This document shows positions 8,422 to 57,814 of a stretch of DNA of 64,000 nucleotides, in pieces. The first letter of the stretch is position 1; every line of letters starts with the position of its first letter. The notes under the pieces were generated by a model. That model was not told the origin of the DNA, did not search any database, and saw only the letters and a program-made list of their open reading frames with translations. A program made the translations under genes and the position numbers. This DNA is from a virus (taxonomy: Duplodnaviria > Caudoviricetes). The stretch covers positions 1-64,000 of IMG/VR virus record IMGVR_UViG_3300031867_000022, one strand, 5' to 3'.

Positions 8422-9459
8422 TTAATCGTATGGAGCTTTTATTGTAAGATCAAATTCTCCAAACACATTGCTATCTATATCTCTTACAGTAATAGTGATA
8501 GTTTTAGCTCCTTCTTCCATGTCTGATGTATATAATGTACCATCTTTTCCAATGGTAAGACAATCGTCTTCTGGAAATTCAAATACAACAAATACAAGCT
8601 AATTATATTTCCAGTCCTGCGGATTATACAATATAGTACTGCCATCCTTTAAAGAAACGTATATATCATATTCTCTACCGTTCATATCCTGTTCACCAAT
8701 CTTTAATTGGTTGTTTGTAGTCATTGTATAACTTGGATGTTTAGTATAGATTCCTTCAAATACGTTTTCTCTTTTTCCGCTATTGTCTACATCTATTGTA
8801 ATAGCTCCAGATTCTCCTTTTTCGTTGTCTACAAGCTCAAATACATCTCCTTTATCTATAGTATATGTTCTAAGATTATTACTGCCACAACCCTGTTTAA
8901 ATACAGTAAGAACTACAACAAGCTTATATATACCGCACAGCTTTTGCTATACTGCAGGGAACATACAAGTTATGGTATTCTTTTCATTAAGTAGTTGAGA
9001 GTCAGCAAGATAATATGGATGATGTGGTTTTGCGCAAGAAGGAAAATGTGGTTCGCAATGATGACAGTAATCGTGCCAAGGTTCCCAGCATTCGAAACCA
9101 CAACAAGATGGCTTTGGACGGGGACCGTGTTGTATATGACAACAATGATCGTGGAAATGTTCTGGGTGCAGACCAAATCCTCTATAACCAGGCCACCAAT
9201 GGAAATCATGAAAGTCTGGTTCAAACCTATCATAATTACATAAATTTGCAGGACGCATATGATAGCTTGGGAAACCTGCATTGTTTATGTTGTTATGAGT
9301 AGGACGATAAAACTCAGGAAATCCAACGCGTAAGAACGGCTTAGGACGTGGTTTATCTTCACAGTATTCACAGAAACAAGTGTTAATCAAATAACACCTA
9401 AGCTGTTTTACATTAGACTAATCAAACTCGTCAATTTTGTCGATGCCGTTATTTGCAAG
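8422..9459 (-). CDS. Putative tail hub/fibre-attachment protein with a His/Cys-rich insert (345 aa; TAG=Gln)
   Basis: MRKIRIGNDIRLKLKI start; frame continues through TAG to ...DLTIKAPYD-TAA; follows the auxiliary capsid gene. Confidence 0.55.
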
Positions 9460-9535
9460 TTCATTCTTTACAATTTTGAGTTTGAGTCTAATGTCGTTTC
9501 CTATTCTAATTTTTCTCATATTGCAATATGTTAAT

Positions 9536-9575
9536 AAAAAAGGCTGAAGACGGGCGTAGCCCACCCTCAGCCAGT
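9536..9575 (-). terminator. Rho-independent terminator after the auxiliary capsid gene
   Basis: GGCTGAGGGTGGGC-TAC-GCCCGTCTTCAGCC followed by TTTTT on the minus strand. Confidence 0.75.
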
Positions 9576-10720: not shown

Positions 10721-11407
10721 TTATTCTTGTGTTAATACTTCGTTGGTTATAGTTTTATATCTAGCATCAGATTGATTTTCTATATACATCTGAGCTGCTA
10801 TCTTAATTATTTCCAACCAAGTGTAATCTTCAAAGTCGACGTAATCGTGATTGATATCGTCGTCTTTAACTTCTTCCGGCACTTTAAGGTAACCTAAAGT
10901 GTAGGAGTATATATTATAGTTAGTATCCGTCAACAGACGAAATCCTTCCTTAGTTCTAACTCTAAGAGGTCTTGCTCTATGGTATTTGTAATGAAAGTCA
11001 GTAAGAGAGTTATTAACTCTGTACATAAAACTATCTGCTGTACATTCAAATACACAAGTATCCATCATATGCTTATTATTGTTGTCTGATATAACAACAT
11101 CTTCGTTTAGTACAAACATCATATCCGTAGGGTATTTGTACTCGTAAGAATCATACGACTTGCTAACTTTATAATTGATAGGTCGTAAAGATACTTCCTT
11201 GTGTAAGTTAATTAAATCTCTTGCTCGCTTTTCAGTTTCTTCATAACCAGTTCCTCTTGGAGCAGCACCGTTAAATCTTTCTTTTGTAAACTTAACGACT
11301 GCTTGATTTATCCAGAATAAAGAATCGTCTGTAAGCGGTTTTTCTAATGAGTTGTTGAGCTTATTTATTTCTAGTTCAAATGCCCCGATTAACTGATAGT
11401 TCTTCAT
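10721..11407 (-). CDS. Tail ring protein (228 aa)
   Basis: FELEINK..., GYEETEKRARDLINL, GYLKVP...EIIKIAAQMYIEN; paralogous to neighbouring rings. Confidence 0.8.
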   Translation of the reverse strand: MKNYQLIGAFELEINKLNNSLEKPLTDDSLFWINQAVVKFTKERFNGAAPRGTGYEETEKRARDLINLHKEVSLRPINYKVSKSYDSYEYKYPTDMMFVLNEDVVISDNNNKHMMDTCVFECTADSFMYRVNNSLTDFHYKYHRARPLRVRTKEGFRLLTDTNYNIYSYTLGYLKVPEEVKDDDINHDYVDFEDYTWLEIIKIAAQMYIENQSDARYKTITNEVLTQE

Positions 11408-12120
11408 TCTTGTTCATTCTTTTGGTTATTGCGCTGCTGTTGCGCTTGTTCTTGTTGTCTACGTCTATTAGCTTCTGCTCCAGATACGTATTGTACATAT
11501 AGGTCTACAGCACCCGATACAAGCTGCTCAAACATCTCCATAGGTAGTTCACATCTAGTAGATGTAAGAGGGTTCATATAGTTTGGTAACTTATAATATT
11601 CAAGCTGTATATTTACAGGCTCTGTATAACGATCATAGAGCGCTCCTAAGCCGTTTTCATCGGCTAGCCATACAATTGGACTCCTGAGGATTCTTAAGCT
11701 GTCCTAGGGCCTAGAAATAAGCTTATTTACATCTTTTACAGATATAAGCTCGTTTGGTATAGTACCAGCACCAGTTTCTCCGTTTAGCCTATACGATGAG
11801 CTAACTTTACTATAGCTTTTAATATACAAACCAAAATTTTGAGGTAGTTCGCATCTACATATAGGTCTAGTAGAAGAAGGAGTAAGCTAAGCTGTTTCCA
11901 TCATACTATTCAACAGAGTCTCTATGTATGTTTCAGCATTAGACGTAGGAATCTAATCTACGGTTCTATATAAATCGTGGATAAGCTTGTCTTGATATTG
12001 ATTCAAGAAAGAGTATATAGTCTCAGAATCAAGTTTCTCAAGTATTTCTTTTTGCGGGATCATCGTTTGAACCCTACGCTCAAACTCAATCCCTAGCTGT
12101 CTCGTTTCTTGTATCGTCAT
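11404..12120 (-). CDS. Tail ring protein (238 aa; TAG=Gln; missing from the ORF track)
   Basis: MTIQETRQLGIEFERRVQ...EYYKLPNYM...CELPMEMFEQLVSGAVDLY; ATGA overlaps at both ends. Confidence 0.8.
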
Positions 12121-12263
12121 GCCTCAAGCCCCCTCGTATTAAGTTTAGTATTAAGTCTCGTAGATTCAACATTTTCAAGTGCAAACGCAATAGCTAAGTT
12201 TATGAGTTCTTCTGCCATCTGATCAGATAACTCAAAGTCTACTGTATCGGAAAATGTTTTCAT
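12117..12263 (-). CDS. Separately encoded C-terminal helix of the split ring protein (48 aa)
   Basis: MKTFSDTVDFELSDQMAEELINLAIAFALENVESTRLNTKLNTRGLEA aligns with the C-termini of the paralogous rings; ATGA-coupled to the next ring gene. Confidence 0.75.
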   Translation of the reverse strand: MKTFSDTVDFELSDQMAEELINLAIAFALENVESTRLNTKLNTRGLEA

Positions 12264-12266
12264 AAT
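12250..12266. repeat. 17-bp direct repeat, copy 1 (GAAAATGTTTTCATAAT)
   Basis: Identical to 15810-15826. Confidence 0.9.
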
Positions 12267-12299
12267 TTATACCATTATATAAGTGCCTGTTGCATCTAC

Positions 12300-15200
12300 T
12301 TATAGTTTTACTATATTATCCTCATAGACATCTATAGCACTTGTAGCATCTGGTTCAGATGACCAAATATTGTCTTTTGCTACAATATAGCTTTCGGTAG
12401 AAGCTTTTGTTACATATATAGGTTTTATTACTTGACCGATTCTATTATTAGATATTATAAGTAATTGAATATATGAATTTTCTTGTATGTCTATACCTCT
12501 TCCATCAGGCGTATTTGGACAAGACAGTATATTATTCGATACAACTATATTCTTATATATTGGATCTGTTTGTAGATTATTATATTTAAAAGAAATACAA
12601 GCACTATAGTCTTGACCAGCATCGTTAATTAGAACATTATTATCTATAATGACATTCTAAAACATCTTAGCTCCAGCCACTTGTATAAAACCATGATTCC
12701 AATTACCTATAACACTTCCTTTAATATAGTTTCCTCTTATTTCAGAATCACATATTTGAGCACCTGAATTAAATATAAATGCAGCCTTTCCAAATACAGT
12801 ATTGTTATTAATCTTTAACTTCTTAATACCGGTAGACATCATTTCTATAGCCGACTCTGTCACCTTAAAATAATTATCATGTATATTAGCAATCGGATTA
12901 ATAATTGCTGATGAGTCATAATTCGCTATTCCTATACCCTTATATACTTCATAAAAATAGTTATGATGTATATTAAAATTGTCCACACCTGCGTCATGAA
13001 CCGCACAACTACCACTTGATACACTGACAATACTATTTCTTATTGTATTATTATAGAAATCTACATTAATACATTTTTGGATATAAGCACAATGTCTTGG
13101 AATGTTATCAAATACATTATTATATATTTTAATATTATTAGTTGGAGACGCAGAATCTGTATAATGACAGACAACTCCATATCCACCAGCACCATCGGCT
13201 CCAGGATTATCAAGACTTGTTGGAATGTATTTCATGTCTTTCATAATACAATTTGAAACAATTATGTTAGAACTTGTGGGTTCTATCATAACAGCTCCAG
13301 TAGCGTCAGAAAGAATACAATTATTTATAATAATATTGTTACATCCACCAGCTAAAGAACCTATATCAATAAGATAAGAAGCTCTTGCTGTTGTGGAATC
13401 TTTTTCAGGATATCCTTCTGCAACACCTTTGATGTTTAGATTTTCAATTACAACGTTGTTACTTGTTATCCAAAAGAAACGCAAAGGCTCATTAGAAATA
13501 AGATTTGCATCAAAACCTCTAATAGATGTTGGTTTTTCAATAGGGATGTATGACGATAATAGATATGTACCTTTATTAATTATTATATTATTAAAATATA
13601 TAACACATTTTTTTATAGCATCTGTATCATCAGTAGTTCCATCACCCTTAGCCCCAAACCACTCAGGATATGCTTCTGCAACGTTCCAAGTACCAGCAAG
13701 AGTAATATCAGTATCGAGTATCTTAATCAGACCAGCACTAATGCCTGTATTAGTACCAGTAATAGTATCATTACTACCACTTGCAGAAATACTACCCCCG
13801 TCAAACTCCAACACACAATTCTCAGGAATAGTAATATCTTCACCAAGAGTAAAGTCATATCGAATGACATAGACGGTGTTAGCATCACTAAAGTCCTCCT
13901 GAGTAAGAACATTACTGCCACCTTCTTTCAGTTCAAGTGTCTTCCTGCCGAGACCACTATGTGCAGTTGGGTCATAAGACCTATCAGGATTACCACCAAC
14001 ATTTTCAAGAGCTTCTGTAATGACCTTATTTTGTACAGGATGTGTACTTGTCTTAGAAAGGGTAGTATCTACAATTACACCTTCTGGAATTGTAGGTTTG
14101 TTTGTCAAATCATTATAGTCTCCACTAAACAATTGTGTATTAGCAGGTAATGCTCCAACTTCAGAAGCAGTATAGGTTGGTTTTGAAGCTTGTTTTGCCC
14201 ATGCAGGAACAGTTGGATCTGTCTCTGTAAAACTTTGAAGAGCGGTATCAGCTTTTCCTAACGAAGTTTGTACACTACTTGCAAGATCTGTCTTAGGAAT
14301 ACCGCCAGAAGGTTTGCTGTATGTTCCGGTATTTTTAGTAAATCCCCAATCAGAAACAGTACTTTCTGTTACGTTGTCGAGTGACGCAAGCTTTTCTTTT
14401 TCTGCAGTTGTGTAATCGTTTGTAGACAATCCTTTGCCACTAACTTTATCAACCTTAGTTGTATCGCTTGGGTGTCTATGATCTCCTCTTGCAAAAGCGA
14501 GTTCTGTACCTACAGATGCAGTACCATCCATCTTTGGAGTAGTTGTAGAAGCAGCTGCACCTTCAGGAATATCGCTTGTTGTTATATAGCCCTAATTTCC
14601 TACCCAAGTCTTAGTAGCCATGTCAGAAGTTGCAGTATTTATTCTTTGATCAGTAATAGTCTTATTATAGTACTATGTAGGATCAAAAGTTCCACCCTCG
14701 GCAACCTTTTCATCTATAGTTTGCTTATCGTATGTATAATTAGAAACGTATTGCTCAGATGCAAGACCTTCGATAGATGGAATTGTCGGTTTGTTTAGAA
14801 TTTTAGCATCCCCTGATGTAGCATTCCAATCTGCATTTACGTTTACATTTGCTCCAGCAGCTATACCAGCAAGTTTATTTTTTTCTGCAGTAGTATAGTC
14901 ATTAGTAGACAAGCTTTTTCCACTTACTTTATCGACTTTATTGTTTAGTTCTGTGTCGTATGCATCGTTGGCGTCGTCTATCTCGCTTTTTGTGTAATAA
15001 TTAGTCGGATCGAATGTACCTCCTTGTGCAACCTTTTCGTCAATGGTCTATTTATCGTAAGTATAATTTCTTACATACTATTCAGATGCTAGACCGTCTG
15101 TAGAAGGGATTGTAGGTTTATTAGACAAATCGTTATAAGATCCCGATGTAGCAACCTAAGCCAAATCTATAGAATTAGCTTTATTTGCAATTTCAGTATT

Positions 15201-15791
15201 TTGTGTCTGATTTATTGCGTCTACTTGTGATTTTGTATAATACTGAGTTGGATCAAAATTGCCACCTGCAGAAATCTTATTGTCTATTGTCTGTTTGTTG
15301 TATGTATAGTTAGCAACGTATTGTTCAGAAGCAAGACCGTCTATCGATGGGATAGTAGGTTTATTAGATAGATCGTTATAAGAACCACTAGTAGCAACTG
15401 TAGAAAGAGATGTTCTGTCTGCCTTTTTAGCTATTTCTAAATCCTACTATTGCTGCTGATTATCTACTTGCGATTTAGTATAGTAATTATTTAGATCTAC
15501 ACCACCTGTTACAAGGCTTTCAAGTTCGGAAATTTTATCTCGATTTTCTTCAATGAGATTTTCGTTTCCTATGATTCTGCTTTTGATTGTACTATAATCC
15601 TACTTTATTTCGTTCGCTATATCCTCTACTTGATCTGCTTTTTCCATAAATTTGCAGCAGCAACATTTATGTTTCTTGTATGGTTTTGCACAGCAGTTAC
15701 ATGAATCGTTATATTCGTTGCATTCTGTACAAAACAAAGGATTATTACAACACTGTTGTAATTCTTCACAAATAATATTATTTTCGCACAT
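12300..15791 (-). CDS. Tailspike/fibre with Cys-rich N-terminus, internal repeats and a C-terminal pectate-lyase-like beta-helix (1163 aa; TAG=Gln)
   Basis: ORFs 15600-15791, 14673-14912 and 12657-14531 are in frame; repeats SYNDLSNKPTIP and KVDKVSGKGLSTNDYT; PEWFGAKGDGTTDDTDAI followed by an Asn/Ile-rich beta-helix. Confidence 0.85.
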
Positions 15792-15809
15792 ATTTATATT
15801 GATTAATTA

Positions 15810-15826
15810 GAAAATGTTTTCATAAT
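15810..15826. repeat. 17-bp direct repeat, copy 2; starts the mini-ORF MKTFSN* (15803-15823, minus strand)
   Basis: Identical to 12250-12266. Confidence 0.9.
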
Positions 15827-15829
15827 ATG

Positions 15830-17737
15830 TTAAGCGGATACATTAGACGTATTAATATAATATTGTCCGGCCTACCAACTGGTGATAGTTTTTCCAGACA
15901 AGTTAAATAGACTGCTTGTTGTATCGAGTACCCACAACGAAACAGTATCTGTTTCGGATACATTTTCAAATTGTACTCCAGAAGATGTCTATGATAAACT
16001 TACTCCACCAAAGCCAGTTTTAATATTTACGTTTGGATTTATAATTGAAGATTTCTTATTCGGTATCGACAGCCAATAGTCTGCTCCATCTACATTTGAA
16101 ACTCTATAGTACACGTTTCCTGTATAGTTTGCACTACCATTAGTGTATGTACACCCTACATATTTAGAAACTGTAGCAATAAACACATCTTGATGGGCTC
16201 CAGAACCACTACTAGTATGGCGAACAAATACATTCTTCTAACCTTGAAGCTAGTATGTAATATTATTATCTGTAGCAAGAGTAGTTCCTGCCTAATTAGA
16301 GTAATATACTCCTGATGTATTATAATAATAATTACTCGTTTGTGTTACATCTGAGTCAGACAATATGTATCGTTTCAATGTATTGCTTGTGCCCCCAGAA
16401 TTAGCTACAGGGGCGAAATCGAAAAAATATTTCGGTGTATGTGTCTGAGGATTATATACAAGTCCGATTGGTTCTCCGTTTTGAATAGCACTTGCGTTGA
16501 GGTTTTCGTATCCAGCCCCTCTATACGCATCAGACATTGTTGTAAACACAATAGTAGGATTATTATTATCTATAACTTCAAATGATGTTGCTTTTACATC
16601 TCCTTTTACGGTAATATTTCCAGCTTCCATATCAGTTGCTGTAACATAACCATCTAAGTCTATTTTATCTGCACTAATTTTTACACTTCCACCATATTCA
16701 TTTACCTTTGCTATTACTGCAGCAGAAGTAAAATCATTAGCTGCCATAAGTTCTGCTGTTGCAGAATTGAGATCAGCTTTGGTAGTAAGACCTGCTTTCC
16801 ACGTGTTGATTCTATTTACAATGTTAGTTTTAGAATCCGATCCAGTTATAGAAAAAAGAATAGATGCTACATCATCGTTCGTCTTACTAATCTTATTAAA
16901 AATCTCAGTCTTTGCATTATTACTAGAAGCGCTAGCTTTAAGTCCGGCAATAGCTTCATCAACCTTTGCTTCCATAGATGCAGTAGCGACATATTCGCCA
17001 TTCTTTAATTTCTCAACATATGTACGAAGTTCTGCAATAGCAGAAGACAATCCACTTTTACCTGCAGATACAATTTCATTATACGACTTATCTGCAGAAG
17101 TAGACTGTTTTAATGCTGAATACATCCATTCTATAACAGTTTCAGCATTCTTTCTAGCATACATAGTAGACAAATCAAGACTTGCTACAGAATCTTCTAT
17201 CTTGGCGTTAATAGCAGCTTGTAGAGCTTCTTGATCAACGCCATTTTCAATAAGATTATTTACAGATGCTCTAAGACTATTTACATCTTGTGCTATAGTA
17301 GACCAGCCATAGGTAACCTATCCGTTATTTCTAGTAATAATACCGATCTATTGAAGATACGCATCCACATCATCATCGCCGAAATTGCTTTCTGATTGTA
17401 TTCCTTCTTTAAGTTCGTCTAAGAAGTCTTTATCGGTAAGCATTTCATTAACCTTATCTTCTACAGTATCGTTGATGTCGTCGATTACTCCATCAAGACG
17501 TTCTCTTTCTTCATTTGCAGTAGCATTAGCTCTATCAATGGCATCTTGTAAATCTTCTAATGCTTCTCTTATTTCTGAATCGTCGTATTGCGAACCTTCA
17601 CCAGATCCACTACCAGAACCGCCAGTATCAATTGAAGATAGTGCATTAATTATTTCGTCTATTTTATTTGAAATAGCATTTAGCTCAGCAGCAGTCAATA
17701 CTTGATTTTTTTGAAATACTTTATTTAATTTATTCAT
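15830..17737 (-). CDS. Fibre-like protein with an N-terminal coiled coil (635 aa; TAG=Gln)
   Basis: ORFs 17348-17737, 16292-17173 and 15989-16186 are in frame; KNQVLTAAELNAISNKIDE start; VKISADKIDLDG motif. Confidence 0.75.
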
Positions 17738-18408
17738 TGTATTCTATCTTCACTATTTAGTTGTGAAACATCTAATATAAAAACATCTTCTTCTGGATCA
17801 TAGTATGTAGGATCAGTAGAGCCTCCTGTACCATCGTCCACCATACATTCTACAAAACTTGCAGGTTTCTTTATGTATGACAAATGTACTTTACCGTTTG
17901 TATCTGGCTTATTGACAGGATCATATACTACAAATGCAGAGTTGCCTTCAATAAAGCTGACTGGGTTCTTAACCCAGGGCATGTTGTATGGAGTATTAAA
18001 GAACTTCTCTGCCATTTGGTGAGTAACTAGTTTAGTAGGCACTAATCTAGTAGTCTGACCGTCCATCGGTGTACCATTGACGTGTTGATTCAACGAAGAA
18101 GACACGTAGTACATTAGATCATCTGGTAGATAATACTTTACAATATTTGTAGCAGGAGTATCTGTACCCTAAAACAATTGAGGATCCGCATGTTTTACTA
18201 ATGGCGCAAGGTCTGCAATAGCTTTCTCATCATACTCAAATGGAACTCTACGAGGATTGTTACCTGTAAATTTCTAACCAATCAGTGCTAAGTAGGCTCT
18301 ATCAAGAAGCGTTGCAGCTTCATATTCTGTTAACGATGGATATGACGAAGTAACATTAGCTTTGTCGTACCCTATCAGGAATTTAGTATATATGTCTTTA
18401 TGCGTCAT
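17734..18408 (-). CDS. N-terminal part of a split tail ring protein (224 aa; TAG=Gln)
   Basis: MTHKDIYTKFLIGYDK...FTGNNPRRVPFEYD...SYIKKP, then an unrelated tail ending FILDVSQLNSEDRIQ; lacks the ring C-terminal helix. Confidence 0.8.
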
Positions 18409-19263: not shown

Positions 19264-20787
19264 TTACGCACCTACAGCGATACCACCGTTGTTAGAAATC
19301 TCTGTATCCTCAGCATCGCAGTACAGAATACCGCAAGACAGCGGGTTACGGAGCATAATACCCTCCTCACCGAGGAAGTGTACCTGATAACCATCACGGC
19401 TGTTAGAACGCAGAGTGTTGATGCTGTTACCGTAACCACTAGGAATTACAGAACCGCCAGTTGTCCACTGTACGAACTCACGACCCTTACGACAAACCTT
19501 AACGACGTTAGCCTGACCGTCACGTGAACCAAGGTCTACGAACAGGAAGGTGTAAGACATCAGAGGTTTACCTGTCAGAGGATGCAGCTGACGGAACATC
19601 TCCATGTTATCGAACATAGGACAACGCTTCAGAGTCAGCTCGATGCCGTTAGTCATCTTATAGGTAGTAAACTGACCACCGAGAGTCAGCTCCTGACCAG
19701 AACCAGTGATAAACTTAGTATCGATCAGGTTGAAGGTAGCAACCTTCTCCTTCAGGATACGGTCGAACTCACGAATACCCATCTCACCAGTCAGAGCGAT
19801 AAACTTACGCTCGTTGGTACCGAGGATGTTGTAGCAGAGGTCGAAGAGGTAGTCCTCAAGCAGCTCAGCTGTCAGAGTGGTGTAGTAACGAACGTTAGCT
19901 GGACTAATCTGCTCGAACAGACCGCTCATCGTAGGAGCAGGACGACCGTTTGTACCCTTTGTGAGGTATGTACCATCGCTCAGACGGTTACTCTTAGAGA
20001 AGAGCAGAGCCTTTTCCTCACGCTTCTTCCACTCACGAAGAGCAATCCAATACTGATAATCAGACCACAGATAAGATGTCTTACCACTCTCAGGATCCTT
20101 CAGAGCGATAGCAAGAACGGTGCTATAAGCATCACCAGTGATATCGTAGCTCAGACGGAGAGTCTGCAGGTGGTTACGCATCTTAAACGGAGTCTGATAG
20201 TTGATGATATCAGCCTCATCGCTGTACTCCTCGTAGGCAGAACCGATACGGCTCACCTGACGACCAGCCAGCAGGAACTCACCAGGAATATAAGCAGCCT
20301 GTGAACCATCAATCACATAGCACTCATATACCCAAGCGCTACCATCCTGATAGGGAACACCATTTACGCGAACCTGGAACTTATAATCATCGAAGCTAAG
20401 AATAGCACCTGGGCCATACCAACGCTCCTCAAGAGCGAGGTAGATAGGAGTACCATTCAGACCCGGAGTGATAGTAGCATAGTTAGCAGGAGTAACTTCC
20501 TGACCATTCCACTTAGCCCAACGGATATTAACAGCGTGCTCGCTGTCGATCATTACTGACCATTCAAATTCACGATTCTCGATAATCATTGTCTTGCCAA
20601 GACCACCGGTAATCATATCAATAGCGGTAGAAACACCGTCATCCTTTGTACCAAATACCAGTGAAAGCAGACCAGATACCTCATGAGGCTTGGTCAGCAG
20701 CGCATTAGAAATCATATTCTCATCTACCAGGTCGCTGAAACGACGTCCGCGATACAGCTGGAGATTATTAAGCAAACTATTATTCAT
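19264..20787 (-). CDS. Major capsid protein (507 aa, TAG-free)
   Basis: crAss-type MCP sequence (GSAYEEYS..., VHFLGEEGIMLRNP); biased codon usage; follows the scaffold gene. Confidence 0.9.
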   Translation of the reverse strand: MNNSLLNNLQLYRGRRFSDLVDENMISNALLTKPHEVSGLLSLVFGTKDDGVSTAIDMITGGLGKTMIIENREFEWSVMIDSEHAVNIRWAKWNGQEVTPANYATITPGLNGTPIYLALEERWYGPGAILSFDDYKFQVRVNGVPYQDGSAWVYECYVIDGSQAAYIPGEFLLAGRQVSRIGSAYEEYSDEADIINYQTPFKMRNHLQTLRLSYDITGDAYSTVLAIALKDPESGKTSYLWSDYQYWIALREWKKREEKALLFSKSNRLSDGTYLTKGTNGRPAPTMSGLFEQISPANVRYYTTLTAELLEDYLFDLCYNILGTNERKFIALTGEMGIREFDRILKEKVATFNLIDTKFITGSGQELTLGGQFTTYKMTNGIELTLKRCPMFDNMEMFRQLHPLTGKPLMSYTFLFVDLGSRDGQANVVKVCRKGREFVQWTTGGSVIPSGYGNSINTLRSNSRDGYQVHFLGEEGIMLRNPLSCGILYCDAEDTEISNNGGIAVGA

Positions 20788-23832: not shown

Positions 23833-23983
23833 ATCCATCCATTTTATTGCTAAGAAGATTAGCAATGACGTTGGTAATGAAATCATTACCTTCGTCATGC
23901 TAAACATATCTTAGTATAAGTTTTAATAATTGATTGTTCTCTCTAGTAAGCTCTAGGAGTTCTTTCTCTTCAGCGTGTGTCAT
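23795..23983 (-). CDS. Small hypothetical protein (62 aa; TAG=Gln)
   Basis: MTHAEEKELLELTRENNQLLKLILRYV(Q)HDEGNDFITNVIANLL. Confidence 0.55.
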
Positions 23984-24620
23984 AATTATCAACTATTTCT
24001 TGTAATTCTTCTTTAGAAAACGTCCTCTTTATAATTTTTACAAGTCGTTGTTTATCATCTACATATTTCCACACATATCCTTTATATGTCTTACGCCCAA
24101 ATTGATTAGTGCATACGCGTCTAATATATACTGTCGTAGACGCACCAAAACTTTTTGCAGCTTCTGACATGCTATTCCATATTTTGACAAGTTTACCATC
24201 TATAGTATACTAAGCAACTCTGCTTGATATCGCTTTCTATATTCTGGCGTTTCTTGTTCCGTGATTTGCATTTTCTTTAGAAGTAACCCACTCTAGATTT
24301 TCAAAACAGTTGTTTGTTTTATTCTCGTCTATATGATTTACTACATTACGATTGTTTGGATTAGGAATAAATGCTTGTGCAACAAGCCTATGTATCTTTT
24401 TTCGATAAACATTTCCTTTAGAATCTCTAATAGATACTACTAAGTAACCAGTAGAATCTTTATAAGGTTTTACCAACTTTTCATTATAAAAAGCAACTGT
24501 TTCATTTTGCTTTTGTATATTTGGTTTAACAGTCGTATAATGTTCATTCCTACGAACATTTCCGAAATTTGAAACAGAATACAAACCATCTGTCTCAGGT
24601 ATAGTTTTCCAAGTTTCCAT
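23970..24620 (-). CDS. Free-standing NUMOD4-HNH-NUMOD1 homing endonuclease (216 aa; TAG=Gln)
   Basis: METWKTIP...YSVSNFGNVR; IHRLVAQAFIPNP...VNHIDENKTNN...NLEWVT; (Q)YTIDGKLVKIWNSMSEAAK. Confidence 0.9.
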
Positions 24621-39824: not shown

Positions 39825-39899
39825 TGGTCGCCCCACCATCGAGTCGAACCCGGACCTGGAGGGTTAGAGCCTCCCGTGCTACCGCTACACCATGGAGCA
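39825..39899 (-). tRNA. Amber suppressor tRNA (anticodon CTA), tRNA-Gln-like, CCA encoded
   Basis: TGCTCCA/TGGGGCG acceptor, GGTGTAGCGGTAGCAC D arm, GGAGG-CTCTAAC-CCTCC anticodon arm; irregular T stem. Confidence 0.88.
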
Positions 39900-48696: not shown

Positions 48697-48720
48697 GTCT
48701 AACCAAATCATTTATCAAAA

Positions 48721-49074
48721 ATGGCAAAAAAGATTATCGTAGACGAAATTAAGAGAGCCTCAGCTGCTCTCAAAGATTTCCACATTGCTCATGTAATTGT
48801 CTCTTATAAAGACAAACATAGCATTGTTGTGTTGAATAAGCTATTTGAAGATGCCAAAACGGCAATTCAGACGGCTGACGTCAAGATTCTTAGTGTTCGT
48901 GGTGCTCGTCACTATGAGACACTTGCTCTCAATCACAGTATGTGGGAACCAATGTACGAACACAAATGTAAACATTGTGGTAAAACGTTCAGGTCTCCAA
49001 TTAAGGAACAAGTCTGGTGCTCTCATGCATGTAAGTGGGCTTATCGTAAACAACAAAAAACCAAAGCAGCATGA
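48721..49074 (+). CDS. Hypothetical protein with a C-terminal zinc finger
   Basis: CKHCGKTF...WCSHAC. Confidence 0.75.
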   Translation: MAKKIIVDEIKRASAALKDFHIAHVIVSYKDKHSIVVLNKLFEDAKTAIQTADVKILSVRGARHYETLALNHSMWEPMYEHKCKHCGKTFRSPIKEQVWCSHACKWAYRKQQKTKAA

Positions 49075-52230: not shown

Positions 52231-52390
52231 TTATGCACGGCTGTCAGAAAACCAAACCTGTTACGTACAGGGAGCGTCATAAGGCTGCCACGCCTTATAT
52301 TCGCAAAACAAAACACAGAGAAGACCTCCGTAAGGAGTATTCATAGTGAGTTACAAACATTTAGTTATTAATTTTTAACATTTATCAAAA

Positions 52391-53053
52391 ATGGCAAAAG
52401 AAAAAGAACAAAAGCAGAAAGCTGTTACACTTACAGCGAACAACGTAGTCGAAGAAGCTAAAAAAGGTAACATTCTGACCACCGAGTTGAAAGAGCGCAT
52501 GGACAAGGAGATCCAAGACGAGAAGGACAAACAGATCGTCTATGAGGTCAAGCGCCGTCACAGTAAGATAGGTTATATCTTAGGCATGTCTTTGGTTCAC
52601 AAACGCAAGATGAACCGATACAACGATCTTTCGACGTACAACGTTCGTCAGCTTGGCCGCCTTGAGCGATTCTTGTGTGGATTTACGGTAACTGACCAGA
52701 TCATCAACGAATTCGCTCGTACAGAGGATGACGTTCTCGGATTGGAAGTTCTTGACGAGAAGAAGAACGTTCTCAAGATCAAGATTGTGAAAGAGGACGG
52801 CAAGACTCGCGAAGAGAAGGAATTCAAGGTAGGCGACGTGGTGCCCGCTGTCATCGACTTTTCTGAGTTTGACAAAGGTACAGCCAAGCTGGAGGAGAAC
52901 CTCAAGAAGAAGCGTCAGGAGATCGAAGATCTGCATAAAGATGACGCAAAAGTCATTGCGCAGGCAGCTGGAGAGTACTACAGTACAGACTGGACATACA
53001 ACTTACGTATCGTAACCATGGATGGTCTCGATCGTTCTCATCCAGTGTATTAA
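52391..53053 (+). CDS. Hypothetical protein (220 aa)
   Basis: TTATCAAAAATG start; biased codon usage. Confidence 0.8.
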   Translation: MAKEKEQKQKAVTLTANNVVEEAKKGNILTTELKERMDKEIQDEKDKQIVYEVKRRHSKIGYILGMSLVHKRKMNRYNDLSTYNVRQLGRLERFLCGFTVTDQIINEFARTEDDVLGLEVLDEKKNVLKIKIVKEDGKTREEKEFKVGDVVPAVIDFSEFDKGTAKLEENLKKKRQEIEDLHKDDAKVIAQAAGEYYSTDWTYNLRIVTMDGLDRSHPVY

Positions 53054-53630: not shown

Positions 53631-53807
53631 ATGAAGTACGAAAATTCTATGCATCGATTCTTTCAAGTTAGTAGCGGAGTTTCCCTTATTATAGCAGGTA
53701 TAAGTATGCTAAAAGGCAATATGCAAGGTGCAACATTTGGTGTGCTTTTGGCCATACACTTAAACATGCTATCTTGGAATTATGAAGATTACGATGAGGA
53801 AGAATAA
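53631..53807 (+). CDS. Small two-TM membrane protein (58 aa)
   Basis: MKYENSMHRFFQVSSGVSLIIAGISML...FGVLLAIHLNML. Confidence 0.5.
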   Translation: MKYENSMHRFFQVSSGVSLIIAGISMLKGNMQGATFGVLLAIHLNMLSWNYEDYDEEE

Positions 53808-53829
53808 GAAATCTTAGCGTGTCCCAGGA

Positions 53830-54023
53830 TAAGTCGTTCGGACGGCGGTTCGATTCCGCCCAGGTCCACCTATATTAATAAATATGGGCTTGACTGGTTT
53901 AGACGGCGACAGAAAGTAAGACATCAAGCGCTTTGATATAAAAATTAAACGGCAACATAAACGTTGTTGACTACACGGGTCTCCAGGAGGCAGCGTGAAG
54001 TCGGTGAACCCTACCTAAGTGGG
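53830..54023 (+). ncRNA. ssrA: Circularly permuted (two-piece) tmRNA; outer boundaries approximate
   Basis: 3' acceptor half GGACGGCGGTTCGATTCCGCCCAGGTCCACC (53840-53870) precedes the 5' half GGGCTTGACTGGTTTAGAC (53886); G3.U70 pair; tag ORF GNINVVDYTGLQEAA* at 53951-53998. Confidence 0.88.
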
Positions 54024-54025
54024 GA

Positions 54026-54081
54026 GAGTGAGTAGCGTTAATTCGCCCAGGTACAGGTGGGTTCGAATCCCACACTCACTC
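54026..54081 (+). ncRNA. tRNA-like minihelix without an anticodon arm
   Basis: GAGTGAGT/ACTCACTC stem plus GTGGG-TTCGAAT-CCCAC T arm. Confidence 0.7.
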
Positions 54082-54171
54082 CTACGTCGTGAGACGCATT
54101 AGACTGTCTTAAAGGATAGTCTCTTTCGTGAATGGTAGGTGCAGGTGAAGTATAGTAGCCTGCACCGTAAT

Positions 54172-56361: not shown

Positions 56362-56428
56362 CTGGCTTAAACAACCAATCGAGAATGTAAAAAAGTAGTT
56401 ATTAACAATTTAAACCCGTTTATCAAAA

Positions 56429-57814
56429 ATGGCAAAAACAAAGCAAAACGCAGCACAGGCTGCAATGGAAAACAATGGCAACGCTCCTGAGACAAAAGAG
56501 GAGGCAAAAGTACTCACTCAGGTAATGGACGCTGCAAAGAGCAACCACCTGTCACAGGACAGTAAGGTTATGCTCGCTTACCTTACTCAGAAGCGCTGGG
56601 TAGAAAATCCAAATCTCCCCACGACACTGGTTGAAGGTGCAAATGTTATTACAGACGCCCTCATGGCCGATACTATCGTTACAAGCATCGCTAAAGGCGA
56701 TGAAGCATTTACAATGCTTATTCGTAACGACGAAAGCAAGTATATCGCTATCGCAGCGGCTCTGAATACCTTTGGTATTACCATGCCGGCATTCAAAGAG
56801 CTCCCCGCTCCTTCAGAAGACCAGCTGAAGAAGATTGGCGTTAAGCTTCTTCCTGCAGAAACCAAGGTTGTAACTGTAAACAAACAGAACATCGACAAGG
56901 CCGCCATCGAACAGAAGAAGAAAGAAGTAGCAGTGGTGAAGAAGAATCCCACGACCGATCCCACAAAGATCGAAAATGAGACTCAGCTTAAGGAAGCCCT
57001 TCAGTCTTTACTGATGAATATGAAGGAGACTCCTGACGGTCGTATTCAAAATGCTGTAGCTTTCTACCAGGCATATCTTGAGCTCCAGGCACAGAAGTCT
57101 GAAAACAAGGATGAAGAGATTAAGCGTATCAAGGATCTTTCCCGCCCTGTATTGCTGAAACAAATCTCTGAACTTCTTGGCAACTGTACCTATGCTCTCG
57201 ATGGTATGGGCAAGCTGTTCGCAAAAGCTGCCATAGAGTCTAATTCTCCAGTGGTCCCATTCAAGATGTACAAGACTGCATCAAAGAACACATCTGACGA
57301 GATTGCTGCAGAGATGGTTAAAACTCTGGTTGTGTGGACTTGTGAGTCTCGCATAAAGAACTGTCAAGACTACATAGACATGGCCGCTAAGGACAAGTCT
57401 AAGAAGGATGATGAGAAGCGTAAAGCTAACATCCGTACAGCAGAGGATTCTATAGCAGAAGCGCAGAATGCTATCAGCATCGTTACCAATCCTTCGTTCG
57501 ATAACGTTGACAATCTGATTGAGAACTACAAATCTGCAGACGTACAAAGTGATGCGTATCGTATCGCACACCGCATCGTCAGCAACATGAAGGATTTGTT
57601 CTACAAGAAGCTTGACATCGCCAAGGTTGGTATGGATGCATTCTTGCATAACTGTCAACAGCATGCAGGTATTATCACCAACCTTTTCTGCAGTACATTC
57701 AATCAGTCTATGGGTTACAGCACCGCTAACCTCATAGAACTGAAGGAAACTGAAGCTGCCGAAGGTGAAGGTGAGAAGACCGAAGAAAAGCAGGAAGGTG
57801 AGTCAAAAAACTGA
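56429..57814 (+). CDS. Hypothetical protein (461 aa)
   Basis: TTATCAAAAATG start; biased codon usage. Confidence 0.85.
   Translation: MAKTKQNAAQAAMENNGNAPETKEEAKVLTQVMDAAKSNHLSQDSKVMLAYLTQKRWVENPNLPTTLVEGANVITDALMADTIVTSIAKGDEAFTMLIRNDESKYIAIAAALNTFGITMPAFKELPAPSEDQLKKIGVKLLPAETKVVTVNKQNIDKAAIEQKKKEVAVVKKNPTTDPTKIENETQLKEALQSLLMNMKETPDGRIQNAVAFYQAYLELQAQKSENKDEEIKRIKDLSRPVLLKQISELLGNCTYALDGMGKLFAKAAIESNSPVVPFKMYKTASKNTSDEIAAEMVKTLVVWTCESRIKNCQDYIDMAAKDKSKKDDEKRKANIRTAEDSIAEAQNAISIVTNPSFDNVDNLIENYKSADVQSDAYRIAHRIVSNMKDLFYKKLDIAKVGMDAFLHNCQQHAGIITNLFCSTFNQSMGYSTANLIELKETEAAEGEGEKTEEKQEGESKN

Follow-up and report, generated by a model that had tools for sequence, protein, structure and literature searches.

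The stretch of DNA considered here (the window) comprises 64,000 nucleotides (nt), positions 1 to 64,000 of the IMG/VR record IMGVR_UViG_3300031867_000022, and is from a crAss-like phage of the cattle gut; the source record is a complete viral genome of 100,632 bp with direct terminal repeats. A gene for a tail-barrel ring protein lies here in two pieces, with a fibre gene and a tailspike-like gene between them, and an exact 17-bp direct repeat brackets the tailspike-like gene. Read in its frame, the repeated 17-mer is the start of the C-terminal piece (C piece) of the ring gene, and its second copy appears to be a 21-nt leftover of that same start. We consider it probable that the repeat is the scar of a short-homology recombination which stacked a tailspike module behind a fibre module. 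The elements of the repeat, with amino acids given as aa and open reading frames as ORFs, are as follows.

12250-12266, minus strand: repeat copy 1, ATTATGAAAACATTTTC, which is ATT plus the first 14 nt of the 48-aa C-piece ORF (ATG AAA ACA TTT TC)
15810-15826, minus strand: repeat copy 2, the identical 17-mer ATTATGAAAACATTTTC, 3 nt past the stop of the 635-aa fibre ORF
15803..15823, minus strand: dead mini-ORF reading MKTFSN and a stop (ATG AAA ACA TTT TCT AAT TAA), a probable remnant of the C-piece start
15792..15805, minus strand: tailspike leader TAATCAATATAAAT, 14 nt, identical in the relatives L003, L162 and L163
12267..12299, minus strand: spacer of 33 nt from the tailspike stop to copy 1, ending ...GTATAA

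The copies are spaced 3560 bp from start to start and bracket the 1163-aa tailspike-like gene, such that recombination between them would remove exactly that gene and leave the ring C-terminal ORF intact. An earlier note on this DNA had described the arrangement in these terms, including the MKTFSN frame at copy 2 and the real C-piece ORF at copy 1, and every detail of that description is correct. The 48-aa ORF, MKTFSDTVDFELSD... (ATG AAA ACA TTT TCC GAT ACA...), opens with copy 1, which lies 33 nt beyond the stop of the 1163-aa one. Since the similarity between the copies continues for 4 bases past the 17-mer with two transitions (CGAT vs TAAT), as far as 15806, the repeat is really one of 21 nt at 19/21 identity. 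Past 15806, copy 2 switches to the tailspike-linked sequence TAATCAATATAAAT-ATG, which is the leader and start of the tailspike. An exact identity of 17 nt that gives way immediately to divergence would mark a crossover, and it is on this ground that we read the repeat as a recombination scar. The end of the spacer, ...GTATAA, resembles the way in which the L004 and L163 fibre genes end on the 3' side, so the spacer may be what is left of the end of an earlier fibre gene; a 23-nt insertion is present in it in the runs X2 and X3.

The 17-mer has two exact matches in the window and none further at up to 2 mismatches, whilst shuffled sequences gave a mean of 0.05 matches, with at least two in 1 of 100 shuffles, and in the whole genome the two copies are the only matches at up to 1 mismatch. 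Exact direct-repeat pairs of at least 17 nt number 6 in the 64-kb window against 0.29 expected from 100 second-order Markov simulations, the remaining ones lying in the early-gene region. There, an exact repeat of 19-21 nt, (CA)TTTATCAAAAATGGCAAAA, stands at the starts of three early genes (48709-48731, 52379-52401 and 56419-56438).

The ring gene and the genes that part it occupy the following positions.

17734-18408, minus strand: N-terminal piece of the ring gene (N piece), 224 aa, matching Pfam CrAss_Ring_3_4 with residues 1-185, which align to positions 1-180 of the 230 in the profile
15830-17737, minus strand: fibre gene, 635 aa, its start overlapping the N-piece stop (ATGA)
15824..17831, minus strand: fibre module, 2008 bp, consisting of the N-piece tail ..DVFILDVSQLNSEDRIQ with its stop, the fibre gene and CATATT; L003 and L162 lack it
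12300-15791, minus strand: tailspike-like gene, 1163 aa, 9 in-frame TAG, with a Cys-rich N-terminus, SGSYNDLSNKPTIP-type fibre repeats and a weak C-terminal Beta_helix match
12117-12263, minus strand: 48-aa C piece of the ring gene, encoding the conserved helix at the C-terminus of the protein; the next gene starts within an overlap with its stop

The N piece matches CrAss_Ring_3_4 (PF25710) at 31.2 bits against a cut-off of 27, and does so without the last ~50 profile positions. In cr272_1 the gene that follows the 250-aa gene encodes one 294-aa protein (gp37), the N-terminal part of which matches the 224-aa ORF and the last ~45 residues of which match the 48-aa ORF. Alignment with 26 intact homologues placed the N and C pieces collinear with proteins of 238-403 aa, including cr272_1 gp37 and L041, and a structural model of an intact homologue (predicted local distance difference test, pLDDT, 80.7) matches the tail-barrel chains D, E and F of phicrAss001 (7qoj) with E-values of 3e-10 to 1e-9 and target-normalised template-modelling (TM) scores of 0.68-0.69. 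According to the published account, ring proteins consist of three conserved helices and a beta-sandwich (PMC10172136). It follows from the collinearity, together with the Pfam match of the N piece and the fold match of the intact homologue, that the ring gene is split just before its last helix, and the two receptor-binding-type genes, fibre and tailspike, take up the 5.47 kb between the pieces. PDB sequence searches with the ring protein, as a single sequence or a profile, returned chance-level matches alone.

Both pieces are conserved as ORFs across lineages. Stand-alone homologues of the C piece form 81 clusters in a large protein collection, with proteins of 33-81 aa, most of them 48 aa, and they carry a (F/C)EL(S/N)D.(M/V/I)AEEL core except for two 33-aa rows that begin inside it; some of these clusters come from contigs of about 100 kb. 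N pieces with a conserved tail occur in L004, L005, L034 and L007, the tail in the window ending ..DVFILDVSQLNSEDRIQ at the stop and conforming to the motif ..F.LD.S.L..DRIQ. The two pieces presumably assemble into one functional subunit. Among GenBank phages, 27 records contain a relative of the N piece, at no more than 51% identity, and none of these matches past residue 198; a megablast search with the locus matched the region of the 250-aa gene only, in 3 records. We also considered whether the N-piece tail might be a diverged duplicate of the C-piece start, as MAFFT overlays the two and ..EFQLN.. of L007 resembles ..TFQLN.. of L045, and rejected this because the identity is too low to claim.

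Compared with its sister cr272_1 (L033 10001-10885), cr273_1 (L032 1498-3870) has an in-frame insertion of ~500 aa in the same ring protein. It consists of immunoglobulin-like domains of the InlB B-repeat type (Flg_new_2) in a loop of the beta-sandwich, at a site other than that of the fibre-gene split, and the cr273_1 ring subunit would itself bear a large outward decoration. At L036 (2952-5308) the N part is fused in frame to an extension of ~540 aa (734 aa in total, with no Pfam match), and a separate C piece of 49-51 aa follows.

We compared 57 IMG/VR loci, 52 of them readable. The ring gene is intact (238-403 aa) in 45 and intact with the 500-aa in-frame insertion in 1 (cr273_1), a further 6 stop short of the C helix and 5 are cut off by the end of the contig; neither module is present at 45/52 readable loci. 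A fibre gene alone is found in L004 and L005, a tailspike alone in L003 and L162, and both together in the window, L163 and run X3, so that all four states (intact ring gene, fibre only, tailspike only, both) exist at one locus. The contig of run X3 comes from another study, is 6734 nt long and is collinear with 11525-18348 in the fibre-plus-tailspike layout, and as it and L163 carry this layout independently, the two-gene arrangement is not an assembly artefact. The presence and absence of modules at this spot, for which the earlier note had proposed to compare related genomes, is thus borne out; the left copies have decayed in relatives, and the exact 18-mer of the site is absent from related IMG/VR contigs.

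The junctions themselves are informative. In all four tailspike-bearing sequences (window, L003, L162 and L163) a copy of the C-piece start stands directly before the same 14-nt leader, intact in the window and decaying in the other three. L003 (98% identical in the upstream DNA) and L162 (91%) have the left copy minus one T, directly abutting a truncated N piece of 198 aa with no fibre gene. In L163 the left copy follows the fibre gene and differs by two substitutions from the L004-type start ATGATTACATTTTCTGAT, and has ATA in place of ATG. In L004 and L005 a single fibre gene lies between the N and C pieces, and the ATG of the C piece overlaps the fibre stop. That the left copy differs and decays among tailspike-bearing sequences suggests an unselected remnant. 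Copy 2 in the window equals the window's own copy 1, while the remnant in L163 is of the other (MITFSD) type, a pattern that fits crossovers inside the site. An IMG/VR search with the 18-mer in degenerate form gave 23 matches, all unrelated, none of which (0/23) encodes any of eight neighbouring proteins by tblastn; a 20-mer of the tailspike leader retrieved L003 and one unrelated giant-virus contig and nothing else, and the L004-type start retrieved the contigs of L004 and L005 alone. Two contigs from other runs hint at further junctions at the two copies in those samples: that of X2 begins exactly at 12250, the outer base of copy 1, and that of X4 matches 15525-15817, leaves the window inside copy 2 and goes on for another 150 nt that the window does not match.

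A tree of the N-terminal ring parts (about 200 columns, midpoint-rooted, one short protein) places the window, L003, L004, L005, L034 and L007 in one clade (support 100/99). L036 groups with the intact L045-L049 outside this clade, and represents an independent split. The tailspike-only L003 is the sister of the window and is nested among fibre-bearing lineages whose N piece ends in ..F.LD.S.L..DRIQ, for which reason the fibre module would have been lost secondarily in the L003/L162 line. This loss removed 15824-17831 (2008 bp) and joins 17832 to 15823, ..GGACGATG being joined to ATGAAAAC.., with no more than 2-3 nt of microhomology. It is the only module loss that can be traced, and it did not use the 17-mer. 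The order of events that parsimony favours starts from a fibre-only ancestor. This would have gained the tailspike module, the left junction of which would lie some 20 nt inside the C piece, before the L003/L162 line lost the fibre module.

If the repeat is the scar of such a gain, then the tailspike module would have joined behind an existing fibre module through a left crossover inside the first ~20 nt of the C piece and a right crossover at any point along the extended homology that the C piece and its following genes provide. The local C-piece start would have supplied the left part and the incoming module the right part, in a short-homology (homology-facilitated illegitimate) recombination between co-infecting relatives. 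The enzymes behind the gain would likely be the products of the phage's own general recombination genes, namely an AAA_24 ATPase (G000 68624-69370) and a RecE-like PD-(D/E)XK nuclease (73645-74688), a DUF3799 protein weakly similar to exonuclease VIII. Lambda Red recombines diverged sequences efficiently and has been proposed as a source of phage mosaicism (PMC2327257). The scar would not be under selection and may now serve as an accidental substrate, either for rare deletion of the tailspike or for transfer of the module into other split-ring phages; an occasional loss of the tailspike through the 17 bp of homology is possible.

Several points weigh against this account. In each of the three left-hand contexts seen, the tailspike has a copy of the site before it, which is also what site-dependent insertion would give, and the perfect 17/17 identity in the window could be that of an att core. 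A module ending in the site is seen in the window and in the fibre-only L004 and L005, the other contigs ending before the right end of the tailspike. Some 20 nt is little length for a crossover by homologous recombination, and the order of events is a parsimony reading of a tree that was midpoint-rooted and built from a single short protein. The runs were represented by contigs, from which rare variants are dropped, and excision products could escape such a comparison; the survey for recombinases is likewise blind to unknown enzyme families, to ORFs below 90 aa and to a 5047-aa ORF.

There is also a more ambitious interpretation, which we entertain tentatively and regard as rather unlikely. 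Here, the first ~20 nt of the C piece would be a portable landing pad, of which every receptor-binding module in the clade would have a copy at its end or acquire one, and the phage's general recombination would stack, swap and drop the modules between the halves of the split ring gene, with the N-piece tail (F.LD.S.L..DRIQ) acting as a docking peg for the adjacent fibre. If this were true, the locus would be a recombinase-free, integron-like host-range cassette array that needs no integrase.

Were the order of arrival reversed, the tailspike would have entered first, into an unsplit or freshly split ring gene of the L003 type, with the fibre module and N-piece tail coming later upstream and copy 2 being the original C-piece start. 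An N piece running to ..VDD, followed by one residue and then the C piece, is indeed collinear with the intact L041, and the site directly abuts ..VDD in L003 and L162. However, the frame of the N piece and that of the site's ATG lie one base apart in L003, which means that its junction is not a preserved intact one. The nested position of L003 inside fibre-bearing lineages also argues for an earlier fibre, as does the tail motif F.LD.S.L..DRIQ, which must be old since it is common to the window, L004, L005 and L034. We therefore judge this sequence of arrivals to be unlikely.

We think it very unlikely that the 17-21-mer is a dedicated att-like or integron-like site at which a phage or host recombinase moves receptor-binding cassettes in programmed host-range switching. 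The idea draws on the exact 17-bp direct repeat around one whole gene, on the presence and absence of modules among relatives with a copy before the tailspike in 4/4 cases and three left contexts, and on the core GAAAA-CA-TTTTC, which on direct reading is a small inverted repeat. Against it, the complete genome yielded neither a recombinase of the tyrosine or serine type nor a transposase: PF00589 has no six-frame match in its 100.6 kb, and none of the 70 ORFs of at least 90 aa has an integrase, resolvase or transposase domain, with ORFs below 90 aa and the 5047-aa ORF lying outside that scan. The earlier note's remark that no recombinase is visible in the window thus extends to the whole genome at this depth. 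Moreover, the left copies differ and are degraded in relatives, leaving no conserved core, and the exact 18-mer is missing from the related contigs. DNA folds of 91 nt around each copy gave nothing significant against shuffles (z -0.16 and -1.45) and no attC-like hairpin. The one traceable module loss bypassed the site, and none of the 15 joints listed among contigs of four runs on the locus (22 further joints exist) links the two copies, with the proviso that contigs drop rare variants.

We assign a still lower probability to a transposition-like insertion of the tailspike into the C-piece start, of which the repeat would be the target-site duplication. In its favour, the target is directly duplicated on either side of the inserted segment, at 19/21 nt. 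The usual footprints of transposases are shorter than a duplication of 21 nt, which weighs against this explanation. No transposase domain was found, no inverted repeats pair the ends of the tailspike module among the 25 longest of 167 inverted pairs, and the 33-nt stretch between the tailspike stop and copy 1 resembles an older fibre-gene end rather than the terminus of an element. Of the earlier note's proposal that the repeat is a target-site duplication or an att-like site, the duplication stands, in that the first 17-21 nt of the ring C-terminal ORF are duplicated; a site of the att or transposition type is not supported, given the lack of machinery, of a fold and of terminal inverted repeats, the decaying left copy and the traceable loss that bypassed it.

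It is equally hard to credit that copy 2 has been kept for expression, as a 6-codon upstream ORF coupling fibre translation to that of the tailspike. The mini-ORF does lie between the fibre stop and the tailspike start, ending 14 nt before the tailspike ATG, but its own ATG is lost in L163 and the same bases are read in another frame as the truncated N-piece end in L003 and L162.

The genes on either side, and the code in which they are read, place the locus in its setting. In the order of transcription on the minus strand come the major head protein gene, the 250-aa gene, the 224-aa ORF, the fibre, copy 2, the tailspike, the 33-nt spacer, copy 1 with the 48-aa ORF, and the 238-aa and 228-aa genes. 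Three further features matter here.

19264-20787, minus strand: major head protein gene, PHROG match
11404..12120, minus strand: 238-aa gene, after the ring gene in all relatives and hence the right-side anchor of the locus
39825-39899, minus strand: tRNA with anticodon CTA, which supports TAG as a sense codon

Under the standard code the late region is fragmented, whereas reading TAG as a residue gives long minus-strand genes, and the large fibre and tailspike ORFs exist only under that reading. It is supported by the tRNA-CTA that the phage encodes and by one TAG of the ring N piece, which sits in a nearly invariant glutamine column of the alignment; that the residue inserted at TAG is glutamine was assumed from this one conserved column. 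In-frame TAG counts in late genes (window 1-42000) are 9 for the tailspike, 16 for a 2047-aa gene and 21 for the muzzle gene. Pfam matches in nearby genes identify R1, R2, a second Ring_3_4 gene and the muzzle gene. The genome has two HNH-NUMOD endonuclease genes, both free-standing homing-endonuclease genes of NUMOD4-HNH_3-NUMOD1 composition (window 23970-24620, minus strand, and G000 73131-73682, plus strand), and one of the two is part of the late operon, where it is flanked by the portal gene and by a phage-lysozyme-like gene of 631 aa. In the early region, ARAGORN made a tmRNA-like call at 53776-54089 on the plus strand, with the tag peptide VVDYTGLQEAA and a stop, which may be a false call and adjoins a non-coding stretch.

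The fibre and tailspike genes bear the marks of exchange in their own right. The fibre of L163 is 82% like that of the window in amino acids over its N-terminal and middle part and has a different C-terminus, and the tailspikes of L162 and L163 have the N-terminus in common and other distal domains. An N-terminal motif of the fibre is common to the fibres of L004, L005 and L007; no relatives of the fibre were found in IMG/VR. For the tailspike, the Pfam Beta_helix match scores 24.3 bits (E 2.7e-5), below the cut-off of 25.9, and an AlphaFold2 (AF2) single-sequence model of the C-terminus reached a pLDDT of 40.7, too low for use; the label "beta-helix", and "depolymerase" with it, is weakly based for this protein. 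Searches with the tailspike of PDB sequences and NCBIfam gave no match, and a query with its N-terminus was dominated by the widespread SGSYNDLSNKPTIP fibre repeat and added no new context. Its first 48 residues contain 16 cysteines (15648-15791, minus strand), and a neighbouring 380-aa protein (8422-9564, minus strand) is rich in Cys/His clusters; the cysteines may be tied into disulfide or metal knots that serve attachment, which would be reminiscent of phicrAss001, where disulfides stabilise barrel and hubs. The tailspike gene is internally repetitive at 14086-15380 on the minus strand, with units of about 243 nt (SGSYNDLSNKPTIP...YT.DKQTIDEKV), and because contigs of X2 and X3 lack one such unit (243 nt skipped, 15111-15355), the copy number differs between samples.

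Few phages of the gut are as abundant as the crassviruses, and their means of changing hosts are poorly understood. The locus would represent a concrete route for such a change, with receptor-binding genes housed within a split ring gene and whole-module differences among relatives. On our reading, the 17-bp repeat records the addition of one module and marks a point of possible loss, or of transfer to another split-ring phage. There is also a lesson for annotation, as under the standard code and without relatives the ring gene seems truncated and the 48-aa piece seems noise. In literature outside subscription journals we came across no account of fibre genes splitting the ring gene of a crassvirus; the nearest paper, on zeta crAss-like phages, concerns retroelement cassettes and has a different subject (PMC12386605).

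Set beside known systems, the locus is similar to integron cassettes (attI/attC, IntI) in its succession of promoterless genes, all with a copy of a short site after them, and in the variable presence of these genes among relatives. It is nonetheless not a member of the integrons: three defining features were tested, and no integrase, attC hairpin or conserved core was found; its sites are pieces of coding sequence. A second parallel lies in the modular exchange of receptor-binding genes, in which tail fibre and tailspike genes are exchanged between phages by recombination in conserved flanks. Phage recombinases accept homology that is short or diverged (PMC2327257). Conserved flanks around variable central or C-terminal parts are seen here too (the L163 fibre and the L162 and L163 tailspikes), but the flanks of the locus itself are the halves of one split structural gene, and one arm is about 20 nt long and has been left behind as a direct repeat.

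The closest precedent for the split itself may be nrdA of Aeromonas phage Aeh1, which is reported to be divided by the free-standing endonuclease gene mobE, with insertion-created tails that are needed for the assembly of the two polypeptides (PMC3045599). In both cases a phage coding sequence has been cut by an inserted gene into two separately translated ORFs, both of which are kept, and the pieces carry extra terminal tails from the insertion, here ..F.LD.S.L..DRIQ on the N piece and M.TFSD at the head of the C piece. In contrast to the Aeh1 gene, fibre and tailspike genes take the place of a homing endonuclease as inserts, the interrupted gene encodes a structural ring protein, the inserted genes number from one to two or more and vary between relatives, and the arrangement is known here from sequence. 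Finally, the ring protein shares its fold and Pfam family with rings R3, R4 and R5 of phicrAss001 (PDB 7qoj), with their three conserved helices and beta-sandwich, and in that phage the ring genes are described as whole and the fibres as docking on separate hub proteins bound to R1 and R2 (PMC10172136). In the window, by comparison, the last helix of the ring protein is a separate gene and the fibre genes lie inside the ring gene.

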